NCBI RefSeq assembly: GCF_055900595.2
Contig: NZ_CM148325.1
DNA: 64,000 bases
Reading direction: 5' to 3' (one strand)
Of the stretch, positions 3,468 through 58,922 are shown piece by piece (the first letter of the stretch is position 1; the number at the start of each line of letters is the position of its first letter). A program made the translations under genes and the position numbers. Below the pieces are notes generated by a model that made no database searches, had not been told where the DNA came from, and saw nothing but the letters and a program-made list of their open reading frames with translations.

Positions 3468-4556
3468 TCAACCACCTGCTTTCATTACCCATTCAGAGAT
3501 AAATTTATTACCCGGTACCGGCGGAGAGTACAAATAGCCCTGCAAAAAGTGTACGCCTTTACCAATCATTAAATCCGCCTGTTCCTGAGTTTCTACCCCT
3601 TCCGCCACAATACTCAGACCAGGCTTACGCGCCAGTTCGACAATATTGTCCACAATATGACCGGAGATTTCGTCAACACTCGCCATTTGCACAAACGACT
3701 TGTCAATTTTAATAAAATCGACCGGAAACGCCTGCAGATAACGATAGGTCGCATAACCCGTACCAAAGTCATCCAGCGCAAAGGTAATGTTGTGCTGATG
3801 AAGGCTGTCAAATATCGCTCTGGCTTCTGGCGTTACCGGAATGGGGTTGCGTTCCGTTAGCTCAAGAACCAGCTTGATTTTATCGTTACCTAATTTCTTG
3901 ACCAGGTTCAGACACTCTTTTTCAAATCCTGCGGCCAAAAAACATCCTGCCGAGACGTTGATTCCAATATGGAAATTATCCGGCAGCAAATGTTTTACTG
4001 GCATCAGAATATCCGCAGTCTGTTTCATCAGCTGGCGAGTCATTATGACAATAAGACCGGATGACTCCGCCAGAGGAATAAACTGATCCGGTGGGATAAT
4101 TCCCGTTTGCGGATGTTCCCAGCGGACAAGCACTTCACAGCCCGTCAGTACCCCAGTCTGCGCGCAGAAAACCGGTTGGATCCACGGTTTGAATTCGTGA
4201 TTTTCCAACGCCAGACTGATGGCTTCAGGCGTGACGATATGGTGATAGTGATTATCATTAATATATTTGTGACTATTATTACCCGTGGCGGATATGATCT
4301 CCGGATTGTACTGAAAGAAAATATCCCGCCAGAAAGTAATATCGCTCTGAATCCCCAGTTTCTCAAAGAGCTGTTTCTTTTGATGTGAAATGGTCTTTGC
4401 ACTGCGATTTCTGTACTGTGATATTTCTGTTACAGACATTCCCTGCATCAGCAGCTTGAGTAGCAGTCGTTCTTTCTCGGATACGCTACCAGGCAATGAC
4501 AAATGAACCGTTGTACCGAACTCTTGCAGAAAAACACGAAAATCACATGAATTCAT
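3468..4556 (-). CDS. pdeL: c-di-GMP phosphodiesterase PdeL (LuxR-type HTH + EAL domain)
   Basis: N-terminal LuxR-type HTH (LLKLLMQGMSVTEISQYRNRSAKTISHQKK) and C-terminal EAL domain; start taken at MNSCDFRVFLQEF (362 aa). Confidence 0.85.
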   Translation of the reverse strand: MNSCDFRVFLQEFGTTVHLSLPGSVSEKERLLLKLLMQGMSVTEISQYRNRSAKTISHQKKQLFEKLGIQSDITFWRDIFFQYNPEIISATGNNSHKYINDNHYHHIVTPEAISLALENHEFKPWIQPVFCAQTGVLTGCEVLVRWEHPQTGIIPPDQFIPLAESSGLIVIMTRQLMKQTADILMPVKHLLPDNFHIGINVSAGCFLAAGFEKECLNLVKKLGNDKIKLVLELTERNPIPVTPEARAIFDSLHQHNITFALDDFGTGYATYRYLQAFPVDFIKIDKSFVQMASVDEISGHIVDNIVELARKPGLSIVAEGVETQEQADLMIGKGVHFLQGYLYSPPVPGNKFISEWVMKAGG

Positions 4557-33134: not shown

Positions 33135-33638
33135 TTATTGATAGTGTTTTATGTTCAGATAATGCCCGATGACTTTGTCATGCAGCTCCACCGATTTTGA
33201 GAACGACAGCGACTTCCGTCCCAGCCGTGCCAGGTGCTGCCTCAGATTCAGGTTATGCCGCTCAATTCGCTGCGTATATCGCTTGCTGATTACGTGCAGC
33301 TTTCCCTTCAGGCGGGATTCATACAGCGGCCAGCCATCCGTCATCCATATCACCACGTCAAAGGGTGACAGCAGGCTCATAAGACGCCCCAGCGTCGCCA
33401 TAGTGCGTTCACCGAATACGTGCGCAACAACCGTCTTCCGGAGCCTGTCATACGCGTAAAACAGCCAGCGCTGGCGCGATTTAGCCCCGACATAGCCCCA
33501 CTGTTCGTCCATTTCCGCGCAGACGATGACGTCACTGCCCGGCTGTATGCGCGAGGTTACCGACTGCGGCCTGAGTTTTTTAAGTGACGTAAAATCGTGT
33601 TGAGGCCAACGCCCATAATGCGGGCAGTTGCCCGGCAT
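33135..33638 (-). CDS. insB: IS1 transposase InsB (expressed as InsAB' by frameshift)
   Basis: 167 aa, [64 protein letters not shown]... Confidence 0.95.
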
Positions 33639-33949: not shown

Positions 33950-36949
33950 TTGATTGGCAAATTTCGTTTGTTACCGAAAAAATTAACCACAAAGAAAAAA
34001 CATGAATCCCAAAATGGACACGTCCACTTTTCTAATCCTAAACGAGCAGCCGACCATTTATTTAATAATTTTGATCTGATACCAGAGTTTCGTATTATTG
34101 GTGACTTCCCGGTTGATAGTCACATTATCTCTGCACTATGGATTAACATGGTCGGGCATAAATTTGATGCCAGCTTAGATAACTGTTGCTATGGCGCGCG
34201 GCTAAAGCGTATTCGTAATGATGAATTATTTAGCAATGAGCAGGATAATCCATTCCATATCAGTGCAGTGGGTTCTTTTAGCCCCTACTTCCAGCCCTAC
34301 CAAAAATGGCGTGGTGATGGCTTAAAAGCTATACGTGACGAGTTGGAAAAAGATCGTGACATTATCGCCGCCTCACTGGATTTAAAAAGTTACTATCATT
34401 TTATTGATCCACTGGCTATAACCTCTGATGATCTCTATAACACACTAAACATAAAACTGACTGAGGATGAAAAAGCGTTTACTGCACAGTTAGCAGTATT
34501 CTTAAAGCACTGGTCTGACGGCGCAGCGGCATTTGGAAAGAAAATAGCGTACAAAACACCTGTTATTAATGGTGGTCTGGTCATTGGATTAACAGCCAGT
34601 CGGATCATTTCAAATATATTGCTACACCATTGGGATAAATTAGTCATTGAAAAACTATCACCAATTCACTACGGTCGTTATGTCGATGATATGTTCCTTG
34701 TAATACGCGATACAGGGAAAATTACTAATAATCACGAATTTATGTTATTGCTGCAAGATAGGCTTGGCAATGATTGCGTTTATTTGAAAAACGAGCAAAA
34801 ACAAATATGGCAAATACAGCAGGGCGAGCATTTCCAGGGTAAGACCACCATCCAGTTACAATCCGATAAGCAAAAACTTTTCGTGCTTCAAGGGAGGGCT
34901 GGAATAGACCTGCTCGACAGTATCGAAAAGGAGATCTACGAGCTTTCTAGTGAACACCGCTTGATGCCTTCACCGGATCAACTGGAACACTCAACCGCAG
35001 CTAAAGTCCTTTCCGCTGCCGGTAGTGTAGGTGAAAATGCCGATACTCTGCGCCGTGCAGATGGATTAACCATTCGTCGTTTGGGCTGGTCACTGCAATT
35101 ACGCTACGTTGAAACACTGGCACGAGATCTGCCTCCAAGTGAATGGAAAGAACAGCGGGAAGAGTTTTATCAGTTTGCCTACAACCATATTCTTAGGGCT
35201 GATAATCTATTTGCACATTTTAGTTATCTGCCAAGGCTGCTTGGCTTTGCTATCAGTATGAATGAATGGCAGCACGCGGAAACAATTGTACTTAAAGCTT
35301 ACGAATCCATCAACCTGTTGGCATCGGTGATTACTTCAGGTAAGGAAGTGAATATAAATGGTTGCAAAACTCGAGCAGTAAATGATCTTTGGCGCTGTAT
35401 AAAAGGCACATTAAGCTGGCTATTTGTTGATGCAGCGACACGATATTACAGTCCTGACAGATTATTTCTTGATAAACGTTCAAAGAAAGAAGAGTGCCTT
35501 GCGGATACATTTTTTAATCATATTTCACAAAGTCTGACGAATCTAAAGGATTTACTGGATCTTCGCTTTGATTCAGCAGATTTTTATTTAAAAGCGCCAT
35601 TGGTAGCTCGAGCTGATTTAGCAAAGGAACCTTATAAACAGATCGTAAAGAGTCAGTCGGCAGAAAAACTTGTTAATCAGCGTGATAGTAAAAAAGAAGT
35701 TAAAATACTGAAATTAATGAGCGACTCATCGCTTATTGATATTGACGTTATTAAGCTATTTTTGAAATCAACCAAGAATACCCGACTGGAAAAAGTGGCT
35801 AAAGGAAATCGTAAGAACGAAAGTTACCTACCTTACATTTTCCCTACACGTCCTTTAACACCCGCTGAAATATCAGAACTGGCCCCCGAATGTGTTGGAT
35901 TACCCTCCACATCCGACAAAAAACCAGATGAGAGACCGTCCACCATTTGGGCAAAATATACTCAAGCATTACGCGGAGTATGGATCAAACCGACGTTGCT
36001 AGCATCGGAGCAGGACTCAGATGAAGCGACAAAAAAAGCTCGGCCTAAGAAATTCATTCATATTGGCACAGACAGGAAACATAAAGTTGTCGTTGCGCTA
36101 ACCAGCATTAAAACAGAGGAGGACGACTGGGCTAAAATGGCCTGCAATAAATCTAACTTGTCCCGTTCAAGGTACCAGCGGATTTCTGAACTGGTTAATG
36201 CAACATTGAAACTATCTCCTAAACCTGATTATGTTTTATTCCCTGAGCTTTCAATCCCGTTACGCTGGGTTAACAGTATTGCTGATCGTTTGAGTTCGGC
36301 GGGTATCAGTCTAATTGCGGGAACAGAATACCGCCACTTAGACGATAATCAACTGAAGAGTGAGGCCGTACTTGTCCTTTCAGATAACAGACTCGGCTAT
36401 CCAGCGAGTGTCAAAATATGGCAACCCAAGCTGGAACCCGCCGTAGGTGAAGATGAGGCATTATTTTCAACTTATGGTAAGTCTTGGGACTCGACACTTA
36501 ATGTTAAACAACGTAAGCCGGTATATATTCATCATGGCGTCAATTTTGGCGTTATGATTTGCTCTGAACTCCAGAATAGTAAAGCGAGGATCCGTTTTCA
36601 GGGCGCACTCGATGCATTAATGGTATTGAGCTGGAATAAAGATCTAGATACGTTTGCATCGTTGATTGAATCAGCAGCGCTGGATATTCATGCCTATACT
36701 ATTTTAGTGAATAACCGAAAATACGGCGATAGTCGCGTACGTTCCCCGGCAAAAGAACCCTTTATGCGTGATATTGCTCGTGTGAAGGGCGGTGATAATG
36801 ACTTTGTGGTCGCTGCAACGCTGGATATCGACTCGTTAAGGGCATTTCAGAGCAGGGCAAAACGCTGGCCTAAAGGCGGCGATAAATTCAAACCGTTACC
36901 TGAAGGATTCCAGTTGGCAAAGAACCGCAAAAAGCTACCGCCAAAATAA
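33950..36949 (+). CDS. Reverse transcriptase with C-terminal nitrilase (C-N hydrolase) domain; defence-associated RT, DRT type 1 / UG1-like; possibly 5'-truncated by IS1
   Basis: RT motifs in order: A (ASLDLKSYYHFID), B (GGLVIGLTASRIISNILL), C (YGRYVDDMFLV). C-terminus has a nitrilase-type Glu/Cys pattern (YVLFPELSIP ... GVMICSELQ). ORF begins at TTG 63 bp after IS1 and the frame is open into IS1. Confidence 0.8.
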   Translation: MIGKFRLLPKKLTTKKKHESQNGHVHFSNPKRAADHLFNNFDLIPEFRIIGDFPVDSHIISALWINMVGHKFDASLDNCCYGARLKRIRNDELFSNEQDNPFHISAVGSFSPYFQPYQKWRGDGLKAIRDELEKDRDIIAASLDLKSYYHFIDPLAITSDDLYNTLNIKLTEDEKAFTAQLAVFLKHWSDGAAAFGKKIAYKTPVINGGLVIGLTASRIISNILLHHWDKLVIEKLSPIHYGRYVDDMFLVIRDTGKITNNHEFMLLLQDRLGNDCVYLKNEQKQIWQIQQGEHFQGKTTIQLQSDKQKLFVLQGRAGIDLLDSIEKEIYELSSEHRLMPSPDQLEHSTAAKVLSAAGSVGENADTLRRADGLTIRRLGWSLQLRYVETLARDLPPSEWKEQREEFYQFAYNHILRADNLFAHFSYLPRLLGFAISMNEWQHAETIVLKAYESINLLASVITSGKEVNINGCKTRAVNDLWRCIKGTLSWLFVDAATRYYSPDRLFLDKRSKKEECLADTFFNHISQSLTNLKDLLDLRFDSADFYLKAPLVARADLAKEPYKQIVKSQSAEKLVNQRDSKKEVKILKLMSDSSLIDIDVIKLFLKSTKNTRLEKVAKGNRKNESYLPYIFPTRPLTPAEISELAPECVGLPSTSDKKPDERPSTIWAKYTQALRGVWIKPTLLASEQDSDEATKKARPKKFIHIGTDRKHKVVVALTSIKTEEDDWAKMACNKSNLSRSRYQRISELVNATLKLSPKPDYVLFPELSIPLRWVNSIADRLSSAGISLIAGTEYRHLDDNQLKSEAVLVLSDNRLGYPASVKIWQPKLEPAVGEDEALFSTYGKSWDSTLNVKQRKPVYIHHGVNFGVMICSELQNSKARIRFQGALDALMVLSWNKDLDTFASLIESAALDIHAYTILVNNRKYGDSRVRSPAKEPFMRDIARVKGGDNDFVVAATLDIDSLRAFQSRAKRWPKGGDKFKPLPEGFQLAKNRKKLPPK

Positions 36950-37766: not shown

Positions 37767-38103
37767 TGCAACAGGACTGGCATTCCGCCGACATTATTGC
37801 GGTGCTGAAAAAGCGGGGAACGCCTCTGGCGGCACAGAGAAAAACTCATTGCGGAAGCGCTGTAAATATCGCCAGAAATCATCTGGTCCTCAAGGTACTT
37901 TGATAGCAAAGGCAAGCTGGCTGGTTCAGTCCGGAGTCTCTCTTCTTGCACTTAAAGAGATGGGAGGATGGGAAACTCTCAAAAAGGTTCAGAGATACGC
38001 TCACCTTTCAGCCGGGCATCTCACCGAGCACGCAAGCAAAATCGGCACGATCATAAGTCGCAATGGCACAAATACGGCACAGGAGGAAGCGTGGTGTATT
38101 TAA
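37763..38103 (+). pseudogene. Frameshifted Ner/Nlp-like HTH gene fused to the 3' end of a tyrosine-integrase gene (deletion scar)
   Basis: Frame A reads MMQQDWHSADIIAVLKKRGTPLAAQ (Ner/Nlp-like N-terminus); frame B reads ...GPQGTLIAKA (Ner-like C-part) joined in frame to SWLVQSGVSLLALKEMGGWETLKKVQRYAHLSAGHLTEHA, a typical integrase C-terminus with the catalytic Tyr. Confidence 0.6.
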
Positions 38104-38121
38104 ATATGGGGTAACTACTTG

Positions 38122-38144
38122 ATTTAAATGGTGCGATAATAGGA
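38122..38144. repeat. Partial copy of the thrW 3' end: distal att repeat of the thrW-integrated element
   Basis: TTTAAATGGTGCGATAATAGGA matches TTTGAATGGTGCCGATAATAGGA at 58841-58863 (tRNA 3' end plus 6 bp) with 1 mismatch and 1 indel. Confidence 0.75.
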
Positions 38145-38345: not shown

Positions 38346-38705
38346 ATGAGAATGACCAGCCGTAAAAAAGAGATACTCAGTTATTTTGAGCCGGATAACC
38401 TAGAATGGGTGACAGGTGAGATTGGTGCGCCGCCGTTCGATGTGTCGGGCGTGGCCTACCTGCTTCATGGCATGGTGTCGTTCGATAAGCGCCACCAGCT
38501 CGAATCAACCCGGCGCACACTGGAAAGCATGGTTGCTGGTGGACTGCTTGAGCGGGTGACAGTGTATGAATCGCGTCAGGTACGGCGCGGCGGTGAGACT
38601 AACGCAACGGTCGTGCGCTACGGTTTACCCGGTCACTGCGCTGTTATGCGCGATACTGGCGGCGCTGATAACGCAATATCAGGCGAATACATGCGGGTCA
38701 GTTAA
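38346..38705 (+). CDS. Hypothetical protein (119 aa)
   Basis: ORF only; no recognisable motif. Confidence 0.35.
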   Translation: MRMTSRKKEILSYFEPDNLEWVTGEIGAPPFDVSGVAYLLHGMVSFDKRHQLESTRRTLESMVAGGLLERVTVYESRQVRRGGETNATVVRYGLPGHCAVMRDTGGADNAISGEYMRVS

Positions 38706-39240
38706 GAGCCTGCAATCTGTCGTTAATGTTGTTCAGGTCGTAAACCCGGCGTTCAATATCCAGCATCAGGAAATCGTGGATCTCGGCCTGTTCAGGATTA
38801 TCAGACTCTCTGGCCTGTAAGAGCAATTCATTGTAACCATGCAAACCACCCGAATTTTCCGCCGGGGTAGTGCCCTTCCCGCGCAAACAGCTAACAGGCT
38901 GGATACTGGTATCATGTGTTTGCTTCTCCAGCACAACAAGGCAATCCCACCAGTCGCCAAAGTCATACGTGTAAACCAGCTTGTCACCCTCATTCTGGAG
39001 CGCCGCCCATAGTGGCGTGATTGCCGCGTTACCCATGCTTTCATCCTCACCCCATACGCGATACTCGCTACCTGGATCACCTTTACGCCCTTTCTCGAAC
39101 ATATACAGGTGTTCGTCATTCCAGCCAAAAGCTAACTGGATCACGGCATGAAGTTTACTAAAGGGGATTTGCTCTGGAACCAGCACACGCCGCCATATTG
39201 GTGGTTTGCTGTCTCGGATGGTTATCTTTATCTGGTACAT
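38698..39240 (-). CDS. pRiA4b ORF-3-like family protein
   Basis: N-terminus MYQIKITIRDSKPPIWRRVLVPEQIPFSKLHAVIQLAFGWNDEHLYMF is the recalled hallmark of this family. Confidence 0.6.
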   Translation of the reverse strand: MYQIKITIRDSKPPIWRRVLVPEQIPFSKLHAVIQLAFGWNDEHLYMFEKGRKGDPGSEYRVWGEDESMGNAAITPLWAALQNEGDKLVYTYDFGDWWDCLVVLEKQTHDTSIQPVSCLRGKGTTPAENSGGLHGYNELLLQARESDNPEQAEIHDFLMLDIERRVYDLNNINDRLQALN

Positions 39241-39283
39241 GCGTCGTGAACCAATAGTGTACGTTTAGGTGGGTATTTTTCTG

Positions 39284-39718
39284 CTACTGACCAGGATAGA
39301 GCTGATGTGCCGGGTCAAGCCAGACAATATGGAATACATTACCGATGAAAAATCCATGTATGCGACCATATTCATTGCGCGATATGGCAAATTGATAAGG
39401 TGTATAACTCTGAAACTGTTCATTCAAATGCTGAAATCCCTTAGGTTCAGATGTAGTTTGCCAATCAATCGGATGTGACTTCAACGAACCACCGCGATCG
39501 GTGGTGAACTCTCGTTCAGTCATAGTGGAAAGGTCTTTGAGGCGGTCTAACACCTTGCAAAAATAAACAGGATTCTGAGCGCTGAAAGTAAATTTCTCAT
39601 GCGCCGCATCGATATACCGAAAAGAAAAGTTGATGGTCGTTATGCCTGAACCTGTTCCCCCAGGCACTATTTTTGTTTGCGAGGGTGCAATCTTCGACGC
39701 CCTGATTCTTTTCGCCAT
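39284..39718 (-). CDS. Hypothetical protein (144 aa) coupled to the Panacea-domain gene; candidate toxin/effector partner
   Basis: ATG 2 nt after the upstream stop with no SD of its own (translational coupling); no recognisable motif. Confidence 0.5.
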   Translation of the reverse strand: MAKRIRASKIAPSQTKIVPGGTGSGITTINFSFRYIDAAHEKFTFSAQNPVYFCKVLDRLKDLSTMTEREFTTDRGGSLKSHPIDWQTTSEPKGFQHLNEQFQSYTPYQFAISRNEYGRIHGFFIGNVFHIVWLDPAHQLYPGQ

Positions 39719-39720
39719 AT

Positions 39721-40176
39721 TTAGGAAGCCATCGAACGATAAAACTCAGCCGTTACACTTTTATCAATAACATTCTTGCACGGCGCATCTGATGGAACCC
39801 CTTCACGGGCCTCCAGCCACGGCTTTTCTTGGTGCGTCATCTGCTCCAGCTCATAAGCTGTATAACCGCCAAATACCTCATAGATTTCCTTTAGATGCTT
39901 TGACACATTCGCAGGTAACTCAGGGCAGGCAATCTCTTCGTCTATTGAGCGCCATTTGTAATCTGCAAATCTGGTATACAAATCTCTGGCTACAGGGCCA
40001 TGTACCCATGCTTCAAACTTGTCAGCAACCAGTTCTTCGCCATCATTCAGCGCCATGAACCAAGCATCAGCATAGAACACCATTTTTTGCAGTTTCAGCG
40101 GCGTCATAACATCCCCATGCTCTTGAGCAAAGCAAAGCAGGTAATCCGCTACGCTGTTAAGGGTTGTAACTGCCAT
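39721..40176 (-). CDS. Panacea-domain (DUF4065, SocA/GepA-like) protein; putative antitoxin
   Basis: AGGAG SD before ATG at 40176 (MAVTTLNSVADYLL...); LKLQKMVFYADAWFMALNDGEELV...FEAWVHGPV is characteristic of the domain. Longer ORF 39721-40407 is probably upstream read-through. Confidence 0.6.
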   Translation of the reverse strand: MAVTTLNSVADYLLCFAQEHGDVMTPLKLQKMVFYADAWFMALNDGEELVADKFEAWVHGPVARDLYTRFADYKWRSIDEEIACPELPANVSKHLKEIYEVFGGYTAYELEQMTHQEKPWLEAREGVPSDAPCKNVIDKSVTAEFYRSMAS

Positions 40177-40497
40177 TATCCAATCTCCTGCCGTATGTTT
40201 TCGTCTATAACTGTCCACTACCGTTAATAATCGCATATAACCACGGGTATTGCCCATCGTAAAATGCCATTTAAAGATTCTGCGTGATGGCTCACCATCC
40301 ACCGCGCAAGATACCCGGTGCGTTTGGCTGATAATCCGCAATTTGGTTGAAACCGTCCTGGAAACCTCAAGTTTGGAAACCAGCGACTTGCATCGTAGCT
40401 TTGCCATTCGGCGGTCATAGTTACTGCTATATCCCTTTATTGGCGAGACCTGCGAGAGGTTTTGTTGTTCGAATATATAAAGGTGAATAAAGGTAAT

Positions 40498-43671: not shown

Positions 43672-46398
43672 CTATTCCCATTCGCTAACATCTTTCATGC
43701 CACTGAGGGTAGCTACAATCCCGGCCCTTGTCAGTTTCACGAATTCTTCAGCCCCAACGGCATCACGAATTGCTTTCATGGCAATTTTATTGGCCGAAAA
43801 TCGTTTCTCTGCTGCGGCGATCGCTGCTGGTGATGCCCCTGCGCGCACTGCTTTTGTAGCTTCCTGAACGGCTTTCTCTATCGCATATCGACCACTTCTT
43901 GTCGCCCCAATCTTAGCCACAGCATTTCTTAGCGCGCCACCAGCAACCAAACCACTAATCGAACCAATTACACCACCGCCAAAGCCTCCAGCGATCGCAC
44001 CTGACTGTTGAACACCGTTCATAATCACGCCGACGATCTTTGGAAGGCCTGAATCGAGCGTTTTGAGAGCCTCAGTTGTTCTTCCCGTGCGCTCTACGTA
44101 TCGCTGCGGTCTGGTACTGGCTTTAGCGAGTACACCGAACTCTTTCATCATTCTACCGAGATCTGGCGCATGACGACTGATGGCGTTTACATTCTGCTGG
44201 GTCATGAGCTTGGCAAAATACTGGATACCTGACTCTTCACCGATTCCTCCCTTCTCTCCCTGCGCCACAGCATGCTGAAGAATAGATGCTATTGCAGGTT
44301 GGCGTTCTGCTTCCGGCAGCGCGGAGATAAGACGGTGAAAAGCTCCCGTTCCAGTGTTTGCGGATGCCTTAAGCGTATCGGCACCTTTTCTTACCATAGC
44401 GTCTGATGCGAGATCTCGACCAAAAACAGATTCGGCATTTTGTTTGGCGATAATGTAACTTTTAGAGAGATCGTTAGCTTTCTGCCATTCTGTGAGGAAG
44501 TTTCCTTTTTCAGCCATGATGCGCATGTCATCAGTGATAGCTCTGCGCATTTCTCCGGCAATCCGGGCGGCATTGGCCTTACCTGCCCGGGTGTTTGCTT
44601 GTTCAGCATCAGCAAACTTAGCACGCCATGCCTTCATCCCGTCGAAGGTTATGCCGCCACCTTGGTTGTTGGCAGCCTGAAACTGTTTCATCTCCGGGCT
44701 GAGTGGAACATTGGCTGCTTTTTCTGCTTGGACGACAGCCATTCCATTACTCATTTTCATCCTTTCGCGTGGCATCGTGCTTCGCAGTTCTGCCCATGCC
44801 ATATTCTCTGCTGTTTTCATATCACTGAGGCTCGCGATGATGCGCTCTTTAATTGCTGCGCTTTTTTCTGATGCGCTTCCAGACTCAGCACCGAAATCAG
44901 ACAACTGCTTATTCAACTTTGAGGATATTTCATTGAAGGCCGTAAGGTGAGCATCCTGAACATTCCCAGGAGTTGATGCCAGAACACCTTCTGCTTGGGC
45001 AATTCCACGACTACCTGAGCGCATTCCAGGCGTCAGGGTGTTGATATTAATACCAGTGATTTTCGCCGCCTTAGCGACATCATCTCTGACGTTTGATGCC
45101 TGCGATGCGATATGCTCTCGGCCTACGGCAGAACGCGCTGCTTTCGATACATCATTGGCGGTTTCCAGAGTATTTGCTGCCCCTAACACATGGCCTGATT
45201 GATTTGTATTACTCCGCAATACATCTCGCATTACGTCACTGGCTGTCTGTCCGCTCTTTATTAAAGCGCGTGCTCCTAGCGATCCTGCTAGGCCAATACC
45301 TGTCTCTTTTGCTAGGTCTTCTGGGCTGATCTGCCCGTTCTTTTGGGCGTTCACCAATGTACCTGGCAGGTTTTCTGCCAACATACTAGCCACCTTTGTG
45401 GCCGCACGTTCAGCACGTGGAGCGTTGGCAACTGAAGAAGCTGCGGTAGCTGCCTTTCCTGCACCTAATCCTGTAATAAGGTAAGGTGCTAGCTGCTCAC
45501 CAGCCTGCGCGTATGGATCTGTAGGTTGGTCTACTGGGCGAAAGACAGGTGATATGGGCGTGTATGTGCCATCACCCACACCAAGCTTCTGAGCTGCCCA
45601 TGCTCCGGCTGATTGCGCCGCATTGACTACCCCCACGCCTGCGTCCATTACATCAAACGGTATATTAGCAATCCCTCTGGCCATCTGCTCTGGCGCAGCT
45701 TTCAGTCCTGGCGAAAGATATTCCATCTCAGGATTAAGGTTAGACTTGGCTACTTGCTGCTGCGGTTCCCCGGCATTTTCATCGGCGAGAAACTGAGCTC
45801 TTTTCTGCTCCCATGAACTGGCTGTTGGTAGTCCTGCTTCTATGTTCTTAAATTGCTGACGTTTTGCTTCCCATGCAGAAATATCTCCCACCTGAGAGAT
45901 TTCTTTATCAAGCTCTGAGTAGTCAGGCTGCTGAAGATTGCGATGTTGACTGGTTTGTGCAAACTGCAAGATTTCACTGTCATCAGGGATTATTCCGGCA
46001 TCTGCAAATTTACTTACGTAATTAGCCGTTTCATCTGGCAGTGTAGATTTACCGTTTCTGACGGCATTAATACGAGCATAGCCAGAATTATACCCAGCCA
46101 ATGCCATACCTATATCACCAAATCGCTTCATTCCTTTATTGAGATGGTTTGCTGCGATATCCATTTGCTTTTCAAATGGCAGTGAGCGCGGATCTGTTCC
46201 ACGATAACCAGCATCACTCATTACTGAGGGCATCAGTTGAGCAAATCCTCTAGCTCCTTTCGGTGACTCGGCACTTCCGTTACCACTAGATTCATTGCCA
46301 ACTAATGTTTCCATCGTCCCTGATGGGAAACCATATTTTTCATCGAGATGACGGGAATAGGCTTTCTGTTTTTCTGTCAGTTGTGCCATCATTGCCAT
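43672..46398 (-). CDS. Large protein with N-terminal lytic transglycosylase (SLT) domain; podovirus gp16-like internal virion/ejection protein
   Basis: 908 aa; SLT motifs (GARGFAQLMPSV ... ALAGYNSGYARI) then long helical region and C-terminal hydrophobic segment. Confidence 0.65.
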   Translation of the reverse strand: MAMMAQLTEKQKAYSRHLDEKYGFPSGTMETLVGNESSGNGSAESPKGARGFAQLMPSVMSDAGYRGTDPRSLPFEKQMDIAANHLNKGMKRFGDIGMALAGYNSGYARINAVRNGKSTLPDETANYVSKFADAGIIPDDSEILQFAQTSQHRNLQQPDYSELDKEISQVGDISAWEAKRQQFKNIEAGLPTASSWEQKRAQFLADENAGEPQQQVAKSNLNPEMEYLSPGLKAAPEQMARGIANIPFDVMDAGVGVVNAAQSAGAWAAQKLGVGDGTYTPISPVFRPVDQPTDPYAQAGEQLAPYLITGLGAGKAATAASSVANAPRAERAATKVASMLAENLPGTLVNAQKNGQISPEDLAKETGIGLAGSLGARALIKSGQTASDVMRDVLRSNTNQSGHVLGAANTLETANDVSKAARSAVGREHIASQASNVRDDVAKAAKITGININTLTPGMRSGSRGIAQAEGVLASTPGNVQDAHLTAFNEISSKLNKQLSDFGAESGSASEKSAAIKERIIASLSDMKTAENMAWAELRSTMPRERMKMSNGMAVVQAEKAANVPLSPEMKQFQAANNQGGGITFDGMKAWRAKFADAEQANTRAGKANAARIAGEMRRAITDDMRIMAEKGNFLTEWQKANDLSKSYIIAKQNAESVFGRDLASDAMVRKGADTLKASANTGTGAFHRLISALPEAERQPAIASILQHAVAQGEKGGIGEESGIQYFAKLMTQQNVNAISRHAPDLGRMMKEFGVLAKASTRPQRYVERTGRTTEALKTLDSGLPKIVGVIMNGVQQSGAIAGGFGGGVIGSISGLVAGGALRNAVAKIGATRSGRYAIEKAVQEATKAVRAGASPAAIAAAEKRFSANKIAMKAIRDAVGAEEFVKLTRAGIVATLSGMKDVSEWE

Positions 46399-47708
46399 CC
46401 CTTAAGTTTTGCCTGATAGTAACTTTCCGGCAGATAGCCATGTGCGGTCACATAATCCTTAACCAGTGAAGGATCCTGCAACAGCATTTTGGTATCAGTT
46501 TCTTCGTCCTTAGATTTGGTTACAGGAATACCGAGCCCGGCAATCTGTCGTTTCTGCATTCGAATAATTACGTCCTGCGCTTTATTCAACTCTCGCAAAA
46601 ATGCCTCATTGCTGGTTGCTGACTTAATGCCATTTTGAGATTGCATAAGGGCAGCCCTTTCCCCTTCGGTTGGGTTAGAGCCAAAAGTCCCTTTGAGGCT
46701 AGGCAGAATAACCTTTAGGTTGTATTCATCAGCTTTGGCGCGTAGGCTTCGTGTGTCTTCTGCTACATCAGGAAGGAATCCAAACCCCAGCGTCAGGGGG
46801 TTATAGTTCTGCGAGCGGGTAACGGCCGAAGGATGTTTCCCTACAATTCCCGCCAGTTCATGACCCACTTCAAGCGCAGAGTTCAAGGAGTCGATGTTAC
46901 CTGCAACAGTATTAATTTTATCGTTCATCTTCTCCACTTTCGCCTGCTGTATCTTGCTCAGTTCAGCATTGAGCTTGTCTCTCTCGATGTCATTTTGAGC
47001 ACGTCCAAGTCGTGCTTTCAGAACCATTTCTCTCGTGCGTAGTTGGTTATCGGATAGGACTTTGAACTGCTCCATATCGAGACGTCGATTACCCTGTTCC
47101 GCATTAACCTGAGCATTATATGCGGATGTATCTGCGTTCTGCTGTGCAATGCTCTGCCCTTGCTGCTTCTCTTGAACACTAAAGTAACTATTTGGATCAG
47201 CATGGAGGTGGATGAGGTCAGTGATTCTGTTGAATTCCTGTGGGTCATTCTGCCAAGACTGATAAACCTCTTCAGCAGGAAGACCAAATCGCTGTAATAC
47301 TGGATTTGCCTGCTGAATGGCCTTCTGCATGGTCAGTGGATCTCCAGTTTGTGACGCAAGACGCAGATTCATGGCAGCGTCAGCGGTCTGTCGATTTTGC
47401 TCAGCATCAATGAATCCCATCTGTTTTTGAGAATCAGCCATAAACTGGGGATACTGGGCCATTAACTTCTGCACGCCAACACGATCATTATTAGCTACCG
47501 CACTACCCAACCGTGCCTGATATTCTTTTAACTGCTGGGAAATTTGCGCCTGCTGATTAATCTCAGCAACGCCTCTTAGCCCCTGTAGCGCCATTAAACC
47601 TACGTTTGGCTGCTGCTGATACTGCACAGGCTGAGGAACGGAAGAACGAGGAGCATTATCATTTTGCGGTGCCATGCTAGGCAGCCCGCCAAGTTGCCAT
47701 GTCGCCAT
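46389..47708 (-). CDS. Gln-rich coiled-coil protein (439 aa); gp15-like by size and position
   Basis: Overlaps neighbours by 1-10 bp; no enzymatic motif. Confidence 0.5.
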   Translation of the reverse strand: MATWQLGGLPSMAPQNDNAPRSSVPQPVQYQQQPNVGLMALQGLRGVAEINQQAQISQQLKEYQARLGSAVANNDRVGVQKLMAQYPQFMADSQKQMGFIDAEQNRQTADAAMNLRLASQTGDPLTMQKAIQQANPVLQRFGLPAEEVYQSWQNDPQEFNRITDLIHLHADPNSYFSVQEKQQGQSIAQQNADTSAYNAQVNAEQGNRRLDMEQFKVLSDNQLRTREMVLKARLGRAQNDIERDKLNAELSKIQQAKVEKMNDKINTVAGNIDSLNSALEVGHELAGIVGKHPSAVTRSQNYNPLTLGFGFLPDVAEDTRSLRAKADEYNLKVILPSLKGTFGSNPTEGERAALMQSQNGIKSATSNEAFLRELNKAQDVIIRMQKRQIAGLGIPVTKSKDEETDTKMLLQDPSLVKDYVTAHGYLPESYYQAKLKGWQ

Positions 47709-48385
47709 TAGAATCCAAGCCCCCCAACAAGACCAATAAGCCCACCACCAATAGCGCCGGCCGCAGTTCCTATTCCAGGAACAACGGAACCAAGTTGCGC
47801 ACCCGCTAAAGCGCCTGATGCTGCCCCACCAATACCACGCGCAAGACTGGATGGCTGCTGCGCCTGACCTGCACGAATAGCGCCAAGCCCCTGCAAGAGT
47901 TGTCCGGTATTATTGGCGTAGTTTTGCCCTGCCGTTGCCTGCCCTGATGCCGCATTCATCCCGACATTTAGCAGGTTTCCATAATTTTGCATTTGCCCAC
48001 TGAGCCAATTGTTATAAAGCATGGGCGCAATGGAAGATAACTGGTTACTGGTAGCTGTTGAGCCAAGCCCCCCGGTAGCTTCTGCTGAGACAAGGTTCTG
48101 ATAACGGGCCTGATCTGCCTGTGTTTTATATAAACCAGAACCAAAGAAATCATTCGCGGCTTTATTCTGCCCTTCCAGAGTCATCAGTCCTTGTAGTTGT
48201 TGTAAAGCAGGCAATCCGACTTCTGCATACGGCTTGAGATTATTCATCACCGTATTCCACTGCTCGCGCTGCAAATCAATTGCCTGCTGCTGGGCCTTCG
48301 CCTGAGCTTTAGAGGCACCACCATCACCGCCTTTTTCGTATACGGCACGATTGAGATGTTTATGAGCTATGTGGGTAATTAACAT
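47708..48385 (-). CDS. Protein with C-terminal glycine-zipper membrane segment (225 aa); gp14-like
   Basis: C-terminus GIGGAASGALAGAQLGSVVPGIGTAAGAIGGGLIGLVGGLGF. Confidence 0.5.
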   Translation of the reverse strand: MLITHIAHKHLNRAVYEKGGDGGASKAQAKAQQQAIDLQREQWNTVMNNLKPYAEVGLPALQQLQGLMTLEGQNKAANDFFGSGLYKTQADQARYQNLVSAEATGGLGSTATSNQLSSIAPMLYNNWLSGQMQNYGNLLNVGMNAASGQATAGQNYANNTGQLLQGLGAIRAGQAQQPSSLARGIGGAASGALAGAQLGSVVPGIGTAAGAIGGGLIGLVGGLGF

Positions 48386-48840
48386 TCGCTGAATTCCTTA
48401 TATTGTTGCCGAGTTAACTGATAAAGCGTTACGCCGACGGGTTTACCACATCTGATATAAGCATCATCAAGGTGACCAACACGGGTAGCGCCAAGCAAAC
48501 GGATAATTGCCCGTCCGTATTTGGTGGTGTCAGGAACCATGGTAATGCTGTTAAGGAATGGTGAGTTTTCGAGAAGCCATTTGCAGAATAATCGATGCCC
48601 TTGCAGTGCATATTCACCACGGAATCCGGGGTCGTACACCGCATGGCATTCAACAACGCTATGCCAGAAGTTACGCACTTCATGAACGCCAGCCAGCACT
48701 AATCCTTCGTAGATGCCGAGATATACCGCATCAGGCTTGATGTAGTACGTGTGCCCCGGCTCAACAATATTTTCGGTATTGCCTGGCTCGTTAAGAAAGG
48801 CCTGTAATCGCACAGGGTTATCAATAAATTTTAGTTCCAT
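48379..48840 (-). CDS. Hypothetical protein (153 aa); first gene of the four-gene module (gp13-like position)
   Basis: ORF with coupled start; no recognisable motif. Confidence 0.5.
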   Translation of the reverse strand: MELKFIDNPVRLQAFLNEPGNTENIVEPGHTYYIKPDAVYLGIYEGLVLAGVHEVRNFWHSVVECHAVYDPGFRGEYALQGHRLFCKWLLENSPFLNSITMVPDTTKYGRAIIRLLGATRVGHLDDAYIRCGKPVGVTLYQLTRQQYKEFSEC

Positions 48841-57466: not shown

Positions 57467-58681
57467 TCATGCGTGTTTTTCAAACACCATATGCACCACA
57501 TTTCCGCCATGCTCGAGAGAATCCATATAGTCGGCATACCATTGAAGCATCTCCCGCCTTCCATCCAGATATTGCGCATGGTTGTATGTGCCACGAATTG
57601 AGTTCTTATCAACGTGAGCGAGCTGCGTTTCTATCCACGCGGTGTTATAGCCCTGCTCATGCAAAATCGTACTCATAGTGTGCCGGAACCCATGACCAGT
57701 TACACGTCCAGCGTAGCCAATGCGCTTAAACACTTGGTTTATGCTGGCCTCGCTCATTGTTTTCCTTGGATCATTGCGCCCGGGAAACATAAGAGGGTAA
57801 TTGCCTGTTATTTCTCTAATCTTCCCAATAAGCGAAAGAGCCTGCTCAGACAATGGCACAATATGAGGCCGCCGCATTTTCATACGTGAAGCGGGTATCT
57901 CCCAGATAGCCTTGTTGAAATCAATTTCATCCCATAATGCGCCACGTAGTTCGCCAGTCCGCAAGCCGGTGATAATCAGTAGACGAGCCGCCATAACAAC
58001 CAATGCGCTTCCTGAGTAACTGGACAATGCCTTGAAAAAATCAGGTAATTCTTTGGCTGTAAGGAAAGGGTAATGATTAGATTCATGGCCTTGCATCGCG
58101 CTAGTAAGGTCTGGTGCAGGGTTATACTCTGCGCGACCAGTGACTATTGCATAGCGGAAAACTTCCCCGCACCGTTGCCTCACTTTTTTGGCTTTTTCTG
58201 TAGCACCGCGCCCCTCGATGCGACGCAGCACATTCAGAAGTTCAAGTGGTTTGATTTCGGCGATGGGTTTTTTGCCAATGTAAGGGAACACATCTTTGTT
58301 GAAGGCTTCGAGGATGTCTGAAGCATAACCAGCAGACCATTTTTTTAATTTGCTGCTGTGCCACTCAAGGGCAATATCTTTGAAGGTGTTGTTTAACTGC
58401 GTTTCCCGGGCAATCTTTTCCTCTCGTTTCGCTTCCATCGGATCGATACCACCAGCGATACCTCTTTTCGCATCTTCACGTTTTGCCCGAGCATCGGCTA
58501 GAGTAACCTCAGGATAAACACCTAGTGCCAATAGCTTCTCTTTACCAGCTACACGATATTTAAGTCGCCAGTATTTACCTCCATTAGGTTTTACCAAGAG
58601 ATACAAACCGCCACCATCGGCCAGCTTGTAAGCCTTCTCTTTTGGCTTGGCTGTGTCTATTTGACGGGCATTGAGTTTCAC
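57467..58681 (-). CDS. int: P4-type tyrosine integrase
   Basis: 404 aa; N-terminal MKLNARQIDTAKPKEKAYKLADGGGLYLLVKPNGGKYWRLKYR; catalytic region HGFRHT...(Y); directly downstream of thrW, same orientation. Confidence 0.9.
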   Translation of the reverse strand: MKLNARQIDTAKPKEKAYKLADGGGLYLLVKPNGGKYWRLKYRVAGKEKLLALGVYPEVTLADARAKREDAKRGIAGGIDPMEAKREEKIARETQLNNTFKDIALEWHSSKLKKWSAGYASDILEAFNKDVFPYIGKKPIAEIKPLELLNVLRRIEGRGATEKAKKVRQRCGEVFRYAIVTGRAEYNPAPDLTSAMQGHESNHYPFLTAKELPDFFKALSSYSGSALVVMAARLLIITGLRTGELRGALWDEIDFNKAIWEIPASRMKMRRPHIVPLSEQALSLIGKIREITGNYPLMFPGRNDPRKTMSEASINQVFKRIGYAGRVTGHGFRHTMSTILHEQGYNTAWIETQLAHVDKNSIRGTYNHAQYLDGRREMLQWYADYMDSLEHGGNVVHMVFEKHA

Positions 58682-58846: not shown

Positions 58847-58922
58847 TGGTGCCGATAATAGGAGTCGAACCTACGACCTTCGCATTACGAATGCGCTGCT
58901 CTACCAACTGAGCTATATCGGC
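58847..58922 (-). tRNA. thrW: tRNA-Thr (anticodon CGU), thrW; integration site
   Basis: 76-nt minus-strand sequence GCCGATATAGCTCAGTTGGTAGAGCAGCGCATTCGTAATGCG...GGCACCA folds as a cloverleaf with CGT anticodon and CCA end. Confidence 0.9.

Follow-up and report, generated by a model that had tools for sequence, protein, structure and literature searches.

How should the gene for a stand-alone Panacea-domain protein be read when it is followed, after two nucleotides, by a gene whose product is annotated as a hypothetical protein? We addressed this question for a gene pair, here panA and panT, in a window of 64,000 nucleotides (the whole stretch of DNA that was analysed; NCBI RefSeq assembly GCF_055900595.2, contig NZ_CM148325.1) from an Escherichia coli chromosome. 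The 2.4 kb that enclose the pair are 100% identical in about 10 complete genomes and the whole region is present in 22 of 5,426 complete E. coli genomes; in the identical chromosomes the NCBI Prokaryotic Genome Annotation Pipeline (PGAP) names the two products 'Panacea domain-containing protein' (WP_001371753.1) and 'hypothetical protein' (WP_032283080.1). An original prediction had proposed a toxin-antitoxin (TA) or abortive-infection pair with a partner of possibly new fold. We found that the partner belongs to PanT cluster T1 of Kurata et al. and has a predicted RelE/ParE (BECR) fold. With somewhat better than even confidence, we favour a PanA-PanT T1 module, a type II-style pair in which a RelE/HigB/YafQ-like ribonuclease (RNase) would be silenced through binding by the acidic Panacea protein, with coupled translation and a role in island maintenance and/or abortive infection. 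The pair is laid out as follows.

39721 to 40176, minus strand: panA, encoding a 151-residue stand-alone Panacea/DUF4065 protein, putative antitoxin or sensor (PF13274, E = 2.8e-17)
39719 to 39720, minus strand: the panA/partner junction of 2 nt, TAA-AT-ATG (sequence reading)
39284 to 39718, minus strand: panT (Kurata cluster T1 family), encoding a 144-residue basic protein, putative RNase toxin (no Pfam match)
40177 to 40495, minus strand: non-coding upstream part of the cassette, presumably promoter-bearing, inside the segment absent from related islands
39243 to 40495: the panAT cassette of 1,253 nt, a unit of variable cargo between a pRiA4b-ORF3-like gene and a 61-residue gene (blastn against the NC101 and EC0880B islands)

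The panA start is the ATG at 40176, with an AGGAG 8 nt upstream, and the panA stop TAA is followed by 'AT' and then by the partner ATG; the gap is exactly 2 nt, and the 144-residue open reading frame (ORF) that had been placed 2 nt after the Panacea gene can be read directly from the sequence. Reading of the junction found no Shine-Dalgarno-like sequence ahead of the partner ATG, and since the partner lacks such a site of its own its translation would be coupled to that of panA. The spacing from PanA to the partner in relatives is +2 in enterobacteria; elsewhere the genes overlap slightly, for instance by 8 nt in Flavihumibacter and by 20 nt in Nostoc. An upstream-extended PanA ORF of 228 residues (to 40407) was rejected, because the 151-residue start has the AGGAG site and relatives are 150–152 residues long. 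In a promoter and terminator scan, the stretch from the partner to the pRiA4b-like gene yielded no terminator.

The identity of the upstream protein, on which the original prediction depended, is clear. Residues 29–120 of PanA match model positions 1–112 of 113 in the Pfam family SocA_Panacea (PF13274) at E = 2.8e-17 (hmmscan), thus confirming the Panacea/DUF4065 assignment, and the Pfam scan gave no N-terminal helix-turn-helix (HTH) or other added domain. The best NCBIfam match is the SocA antitoxin model (SocA_antitoxin, NF047745; E = 4e-16), at 59.2 bits against an equivalog cutoff of 190 bits, and the partner is not SocB; among PHROGs the match is phrog_1281 (E = 8.5e-36). PanA is acidic (isoelectric point 4.7) and the partner basic (isoelectric point 9.3). 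The closest phage PanA, at 46% identity, is that of Cylindrospermopsis raciborskii virus RM-2018a (locus L008, 1983–2948), where no annotated partner follows, an annotated CRISPR array lies about 180 nt further on and DNA methyltransferase genes flank the locus.

An exhaustive search placed the partner in a family of 730 clusters at 50% identity (E ≤ 0.001). Its homologues, of about 140–150 residues and all named 'hypothetical', occur in Enterobacterales, Pseudomonas/Stutzerimonas, many cyanobacteria, Bacteroidota and others. Linkage was surveyed in one genome per GTDB species with custom hidden Markov models (HMMs) for PanA and for the partner, and 80 loci were kept. In 79 of these 80 species loci, from Proteobacteria, Cyanobacteria, Bacteroidota and Firmicutes, the gene directly before the partner on its strand is that for PanA, and in the 80th the two are separated by an insertion in the partner gene; the Stutzerimonas and Nostoc loci likewise have PanA directly upstream of the partner. 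The pairwise divergences of PanA and partner are correlated with r = 0.94 over 63 pairs, indicating that the two have been inherited as a unit. The linkage is strict and ancient, and the two genes form a close-knit, conserved module across the species surveyed.

The two genes decay unequally. The partner gene is broken at 5 loci (4 in-frame stops, 1 insertion) and PanA in 0 of 79 assessable loci, which is the pattern expected if the partner is harmful without PanA; these counts are small, and two of the five events may share ancestry. The broken partners stand beside intact PanA in cyanobacteria, with in-frame stops at L041, L046, L078 and L085 and the insertion at L047, and in L046 and L085, both from Nostoc, the break falls at the identical profile position. 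Locus L025 carries an additional partial partner fragment downstream (3913–4180). A tblastn search of the partner against 50,697 phage genomes gave zero matches, phage T1 members being reached via profile comparison only.

This family has been described before. The Panacea domain owes its name to Kurata et al. (2022, PNAS, PMC8832971), whose study predicted 88 clusters of partners; of these, T1 is the largest by share in their Dataset S1 (approximately the first quarter of the listing), with members in Nostocales, Bacteroidetes, Mollicutes and P22-like phages (PMC8832971). The Dataset S1 row for Flavihumibacter petaseus gives T1, the order A then T, and a gap of −8 (PMC8832971); in F. petaseus NBRC 106054 (L081) the family member identified here starts 8 nt before the PanA stop, exactly as in that row, and this match shows that the PanAT T1 class to which the pair belongs was already described in 2022. 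The family profile also aligns to the T1 protein of Salmonella phage Emek with an hhalign probability of 95.5% (E = 1.4e-8), and the structural neighbours of the partner in the AlphaFold database (AFDB) include the T1-listed organisms Roseateles aquatilis and Nitrolancea hollandica. The partner is thus a member of the published cluster T1. Table S1 of the same study calls the tested T1 members 'mRNase' (PMC8832971), and complex formation and neutralisation were shown there for other PanAT pairs (Kurata et al., PMC8832971).

What kind of protein the partner is was approached through its residues and its predicted structure. Pfam gave nothing for the partner even at E ≤ 10 and zero family matches for 141 diverse relatives, and two partner HMM profiles searched against PDB sequences (hmmsearch) returned chance beta-secretase hairpin matches only. 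The earlier description of the partner as unannotatable is right for Pfam; NCBIfam, PHROGs and PADLOC gave only weak matches, all below cutoff or unnamed. An AlphaFold2 model built from a 59-sequence alignment has a mean predicted local distance difference test (pLDDT) score of 83.5, with the core mostly above 90. The N-terminal tail, about 28 residues long, is disordered and rich in Lys and Arg; after it the RelE/BECR-like core runs in the order strand, helix, helix, short helix and three strands, the last forming a three-stranded antiparallel sheet, and an insertion of about 20 residues separates H82 from the second strand; the basic tail and this insertion are family-specific. Foldseek matches of the model to the PDB are weak (best E 0.06), but each of the first 13 is either HigB or a different toxin from the RelE/ParE superfamily. 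The predicted model has the characteristic RelE/ParE (BECR) fold, and we conclude on this modelled basis that the partner is a divergent RelE/BECR-fold protein and probably an RNase. The residues H82, R119, H121, D135, H138 and Y141 are invariant or nearly so in the family; H82, R119 and H138, and with them H121, D135 and Y141, are candidate catalytic residues.

The suggestion that the partner might represent a new toxin fold is not supported by these results, since the model has the RelE/ParE (BECR) fold and the family is T1, a predicted mRNase (PMC8832971). Structure prediction and a profile search of the partner had been proposed at the outset as ways to check the pair; the former gave the RelE/BECR fold, and the latter linked the partner to no RelE, ParE, HigB, YoeB or YafQ family at a significant level, by sequence or by profile (Pfam, PDB profiles and hhalign). 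Among AFDB50 ranks 27–50 are relatives of 200–315 residues in Paenibacillus, Bacteroides, Sphingobacterium and others, which consist of the core plus extra residues; one is annotated as SMI1/KNR4 family and one as 'Peptidase S74 domain-containing'. The partner fold may be reused in other architectures.

The setting of the pair is an integrative island at a tRNA-Thr gene, with these features in the window.

58847 to 58922: tRNA-Thr gene, marking one island end
57467 to 58681: integrase ORF, adjoining the tRNA-Thr gene
37849 to 38144: integrase remnant and copy of the tRNA-Thr 3' end (att-like repeat at 38061 to 38144), marking the other island end
38698 to 39240, minus strand: pRiA4b-ORF3-like gene (PRiA4_ORF3, PF07929, E = 6.5e-42)
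38346 to 38705, plus strand: 119-residue ORF, function unassigned, converging on the pRiA4b-ORF3-like gene with an 8-nt overlap
33950 to 36949, plus strand: 999-residue reverse transcriptase ending in a nitrilase domain (PADLOC RT_UG5-nitrilase, defence-associated reverse transcriptase (DRT) class, E = 7.7e-288)
33135 to 33638, minus strand: 167-residue ORF, C-terminal part of an IS1 transposase (NF033558, E = 1.8e-42), just before the DRT gene
43672 to 48840, minus strand: ORF run in the island, including a 908-residue protein whose N-terminus weakly resembles lytic transglycosylases (E = 3.1e-5, below cutoff)

The copy of the tRNA-Thr 3' end marks the island end away from the integrase, and the pair therefore lies at the distal, cargo end. 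The segment 37849–38144 matches the arrangement of integrase next to tRNA-Thr in thousands of E. coli genomes, which suggests that a single tRNA-Thr gene has taken up two elements in tandem and that the outer of these holds the DRT gene. This DRT gene, of a known anti-phage kind, stands just past the att-like repeat at a distance of about 2.3 kb from the pair, and the neighbourhood is thus rich in defence. Homology to the NC101 and EC0880B islands stops at 39242 and resumes at 40496 (blastn), and NC101 has 116 unrelated nt in place of the 1,253-nt cassette; panAT is variable cargo of the tRNA-Thr island. The placement of the pair in a mobile element beside a pRiA4b ORF3-like gene, also part of the original prediction, is thereby upheld (tRNA-Thr island; PF07929, E = 6.5e-42). 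A motif, TAAAGGTGAATAAAGG(T/A)AAT, lies at the right-hand cassette boundary (window 40478–40497) and again at the NC101 empty site (L091, 2660–2680), where the copy is about 45 nt from the point at which homology resumes; it may be a recombination or regulatory site.

The pRiA4b-ORF3-like gene was considered as a part of the module and rejected. Most related islands, and Klebsiella plasmids, carry it but not the pair, other taxa have different neighbours at this position, and we accordingly regard it as a neighbour and not a component. Together with the 119-residue ORF it travels, at 92–94% identity, on small Klebsiella/Raoultella plasmids, and hundreds of E. coli islands that have no PanAT carry the two as well.

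Relatives of the cassette are found in the immunity region of a lambdoid prophage, in P22-like phages and within integrase islands. PanAT pairs of 69–73% identity in other E. coli (L093–L095, 3543–4438; L096, 2698–4438) lie in a lambdoid prophage, in the stretch from a cI-like repressor to Rha/KilR/Gam/RecT genes; the L096 pair adjoins a PemK-family toxin gene, and the pairs of L096–L098 are near type III secretion genes. Judging by these prophage, PemK-side and type III-side loci, the cassette travels among mobile settings of very unlike kinds. Among P22-like phages, the PanA-T1 pair stands directly after a DNA-transfer protein or transglycosylase gene, and in AR_0069, in the region corresponding to 43672–48840, PGAP calls one gene 'phage DNA ejection protein'.

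Taken together, we favour a scheme in which the 144-residue partner would be an endoribonuclease of the RelE/HigB/YafQ-like (BECR-fold) kind and would stop translation through RNA cleavage, and in which the acidic stand-alone PanA, made just before the partner from the same transcript, would keep it inactive by direct binding, in the manner of type II systems. The cassette would be exchangeable cargo at the distal end of the tRNA-Thr integrative island and would probably act as an addiction or abortive-infection element. The toxicity of the partner, its neutralisation by binding and any role in phage defence are putative. What speaks for toxicity is indirect: the conserved His/Arg/His/Asp/Tyr residues, the pairing of a basic protein with an acidic one, the five broken partner genes against no broken PanA, and the single toxic T1 relative among the three tested (PMC8832971), the other two being non-toxic.

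Several results weigh against this scheme. In the T1 toxicity tests in E. coli the Clostridium cadaveris member was toxic and those of E. coli MOD1 and phage Emek were not (PMC8832971), and the toxic C. cadaveris member was not rescued by its own PanA (PMC8832971). The alignment of the partner family to Proteus vulgaris HigB is not significant (hhalign, E = 0.8); its register pairs H82 with H54, R119 with R73 and H138 with H92 in a sequence alignment without coordinate superposition, and this alignment, for which the HigB sequence was confirmed against 4mct_B, serves only to suggest register. The sole PADLOC match of the partner is to the C-terminal 75 profile positions of NsnC and is not significant (E = 0.027); on the other side, this C-terminal domain of NsnC, in Menshen, is described as a BECR RNase with an H-R-H triad (PMC12065111), and the weak match counts as an independent sequence link in favour of the scheme. 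PADLOC-DB v2 gave zero matches for PanA, and a significant match to a catalogued anti-phage system in that database is absent for both proteins. A consensus scan of the region upstream of panA found no sigma-70 site on the minus strand, and no operator for the cassette was found either. A fused PanA-(GGGGS)6-PanT AlphaFold2 model with a genome-paired alignment reached a predicted template modelling (pTM) score of 0.61, a global score from which the interface was not read; in it the pLDDT of the first residues of the partner rises from about 49 to about 73, a value that comes without predicted aligned error or contact output.

The R-x-H and D-P-x-H motifs are missing from the T1 proteins of phage Emek and of its P22-like relative E212, and this may explain the negative result for Emek. 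The E. coli MOD1 T1 protein (WP_077635758.1) has a reported gap of −20 (PMC8832971) against +2 in every enterobacterial relative fetched, and on this ground it probably belongs to a different T1 subfamily.

The main rival to the favoured pair of toxin and binding antitoxin is phage-triggered abortive infection, in which the partner would be a latent RNase that is not toxic on mere overexpression and PanA mainly a sensor or activator, a reading that we regard as a minority possibility. Two of the three T1 relatives were not toxic on overexpression, Ernits et al. (2023) hypothesise a sensory role for Panacea (PMC10440598), the cassette is placed at the cargo end of its mobile island with a DRT defence gene as neighbour, and relatives occupy prophage 'moron' positions; all of these would fit. 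However, PADLOC gave no significant match, the excess of broken partners (5 to 0) suggests that the partner carries a cost, and the harmlessness of Emek may just reflect a divergent subfamily, as Emek and E212 are without R-x-H and D-P-x-H. Carried over to the class, the same reasoning would make T1 no conventional addiction module but a widespread, uncatalogued abortive-infection system, which we hold to be doubtful, and within that reading, no less tentatively, a latent BECR RNase, equipped with the basic tail and insertion peculiar to the family, would be held and then released or activated by the stand-alone Panacea sensor on a phage cue. If the RNase were latent in this way, it would be no surprise that overexpressed T1 proteins often do no harm, or that the cassette is found in defence or cargo slots of satellites, islands and prophages.

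The other readings are less likely. One holds that there is no TA pair at all and that a non-toxic RelE-fold partner, for example an RNA- or ribosome-binding regulator, joins PanA in another mobile-element function. The harmless E. coli MOD1 and Emek proteins, the lack of a sequence-significant link to catalytic RelE families and the lack of an autoregulatory HTH in PanA speak for it, but it is hard to reconcile with the near-invariant His, Arg, His, Asp and Tyr across about 730 clusters, with the toxic C. cadaveris member, with the asymmetric gene decay and with the basic/acidic pair in an antitoxin-first, overlapping operon that is typical of type II TA systems, and we consider it improbable. 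In another reading the partner would be ParE-like and would poison DNA gyrase and cut no RNA; the RNase members RelE, HigB, YoeB and YafQ rank higher among the structural matches, the conserved His/Arg/His/Tyr set resembles RNase active sites and the tested T1 members carry the mRNase label (PMC8832971), which together leave this reading very little room. We give similarly little weight to a SocAB-like type VI arrangement, in which PanA would be a protease adaptor handing the partner to ClpXP with no blocking by binding. Its attraction is that NCBIfam matches PanA best to the SocA antitoxin model (E = 4e-16) and that Pfam calls the domain 'Antitoxin SocA-like'; yet the score of about 59 bits is far under the 190-bit equivalog cutoff, the partner is unrelated to SocB, and all PanAT pairs examined by Kurata et al. 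gave stable complexes, which is type II behaviour (PMC8832971).

The cassette adds no new kind of system, as its partner comes from a family predicted bioinformatically in 2022 and has a known fold. If the proposed mechanism holds, its remaining value is to stand for the T1 PanAT class as a member native to E. coli and easy to test, convenient for learning what T1 partners do. Members of that class bear no annotation beyond 'hypothetical protein', Pfam does not contain them, and the one study that sampled the class gave contradictory toxicity results. RNase activity or a phage trigger, if shown in the subfamily here, which keeps all of the conserved His/Arg/His residues, would give a function to about 730 clusters from enterobacteria to cyanobacteria and would also test whether Panacea is a sensor or a simple plug.

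Compared with known systems, the pair resembles the RelE, HigB, YoeB and YafQ mRNA interferases in the predicted order of the partner core (one strand, two helices and a three-stranded antiparallel sheet), in a basic protein encoded after an acidic antitoxin, and in a conserved His/Arg/His set plus a C-terminal Tyr at positions comparable, in a non-significant alignment, to HigB H54, R73 and H92. It differs from them in a partner about 50 residues longer (tail plus insertion), in sequence similarity that is not significant, and in an antitoxin that is Panacea rather than RelB, HigA, YefM or DinJ. With the Menshen NsnC PB-BECR1 domain (PMC12065111) the likeness lies in the H-R-H triad there and the conserved H82, R119 and H138 in the partner family, a weak match; the genetic architecture is different, as the locus here is without NsnA, NsnB and the inactive-PIN N-terminal domain. 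SocAB of Caulobacter, a type VI system, shares the Panacea domain, common to SocA and PanA, whereas SocB is a DnaN-binding toxin and the partner here has no SocB similarity in NCBIfam or Pfam. With the PanAT T1 pairs of Kurata et al. the cassette has in common a stand-alone Panacea protein encoded first, a partner that overlaps it or follows a few nt on, and a similar taxonomic spread across cyanobacteria, Bacteroidetes, Proteobacteria and phages, while the enterobacterial subfamily here is set apart by its +2 gap and by keeping the R-x-H and D-P-x-H motifs that are missing in the P22-like phage members.
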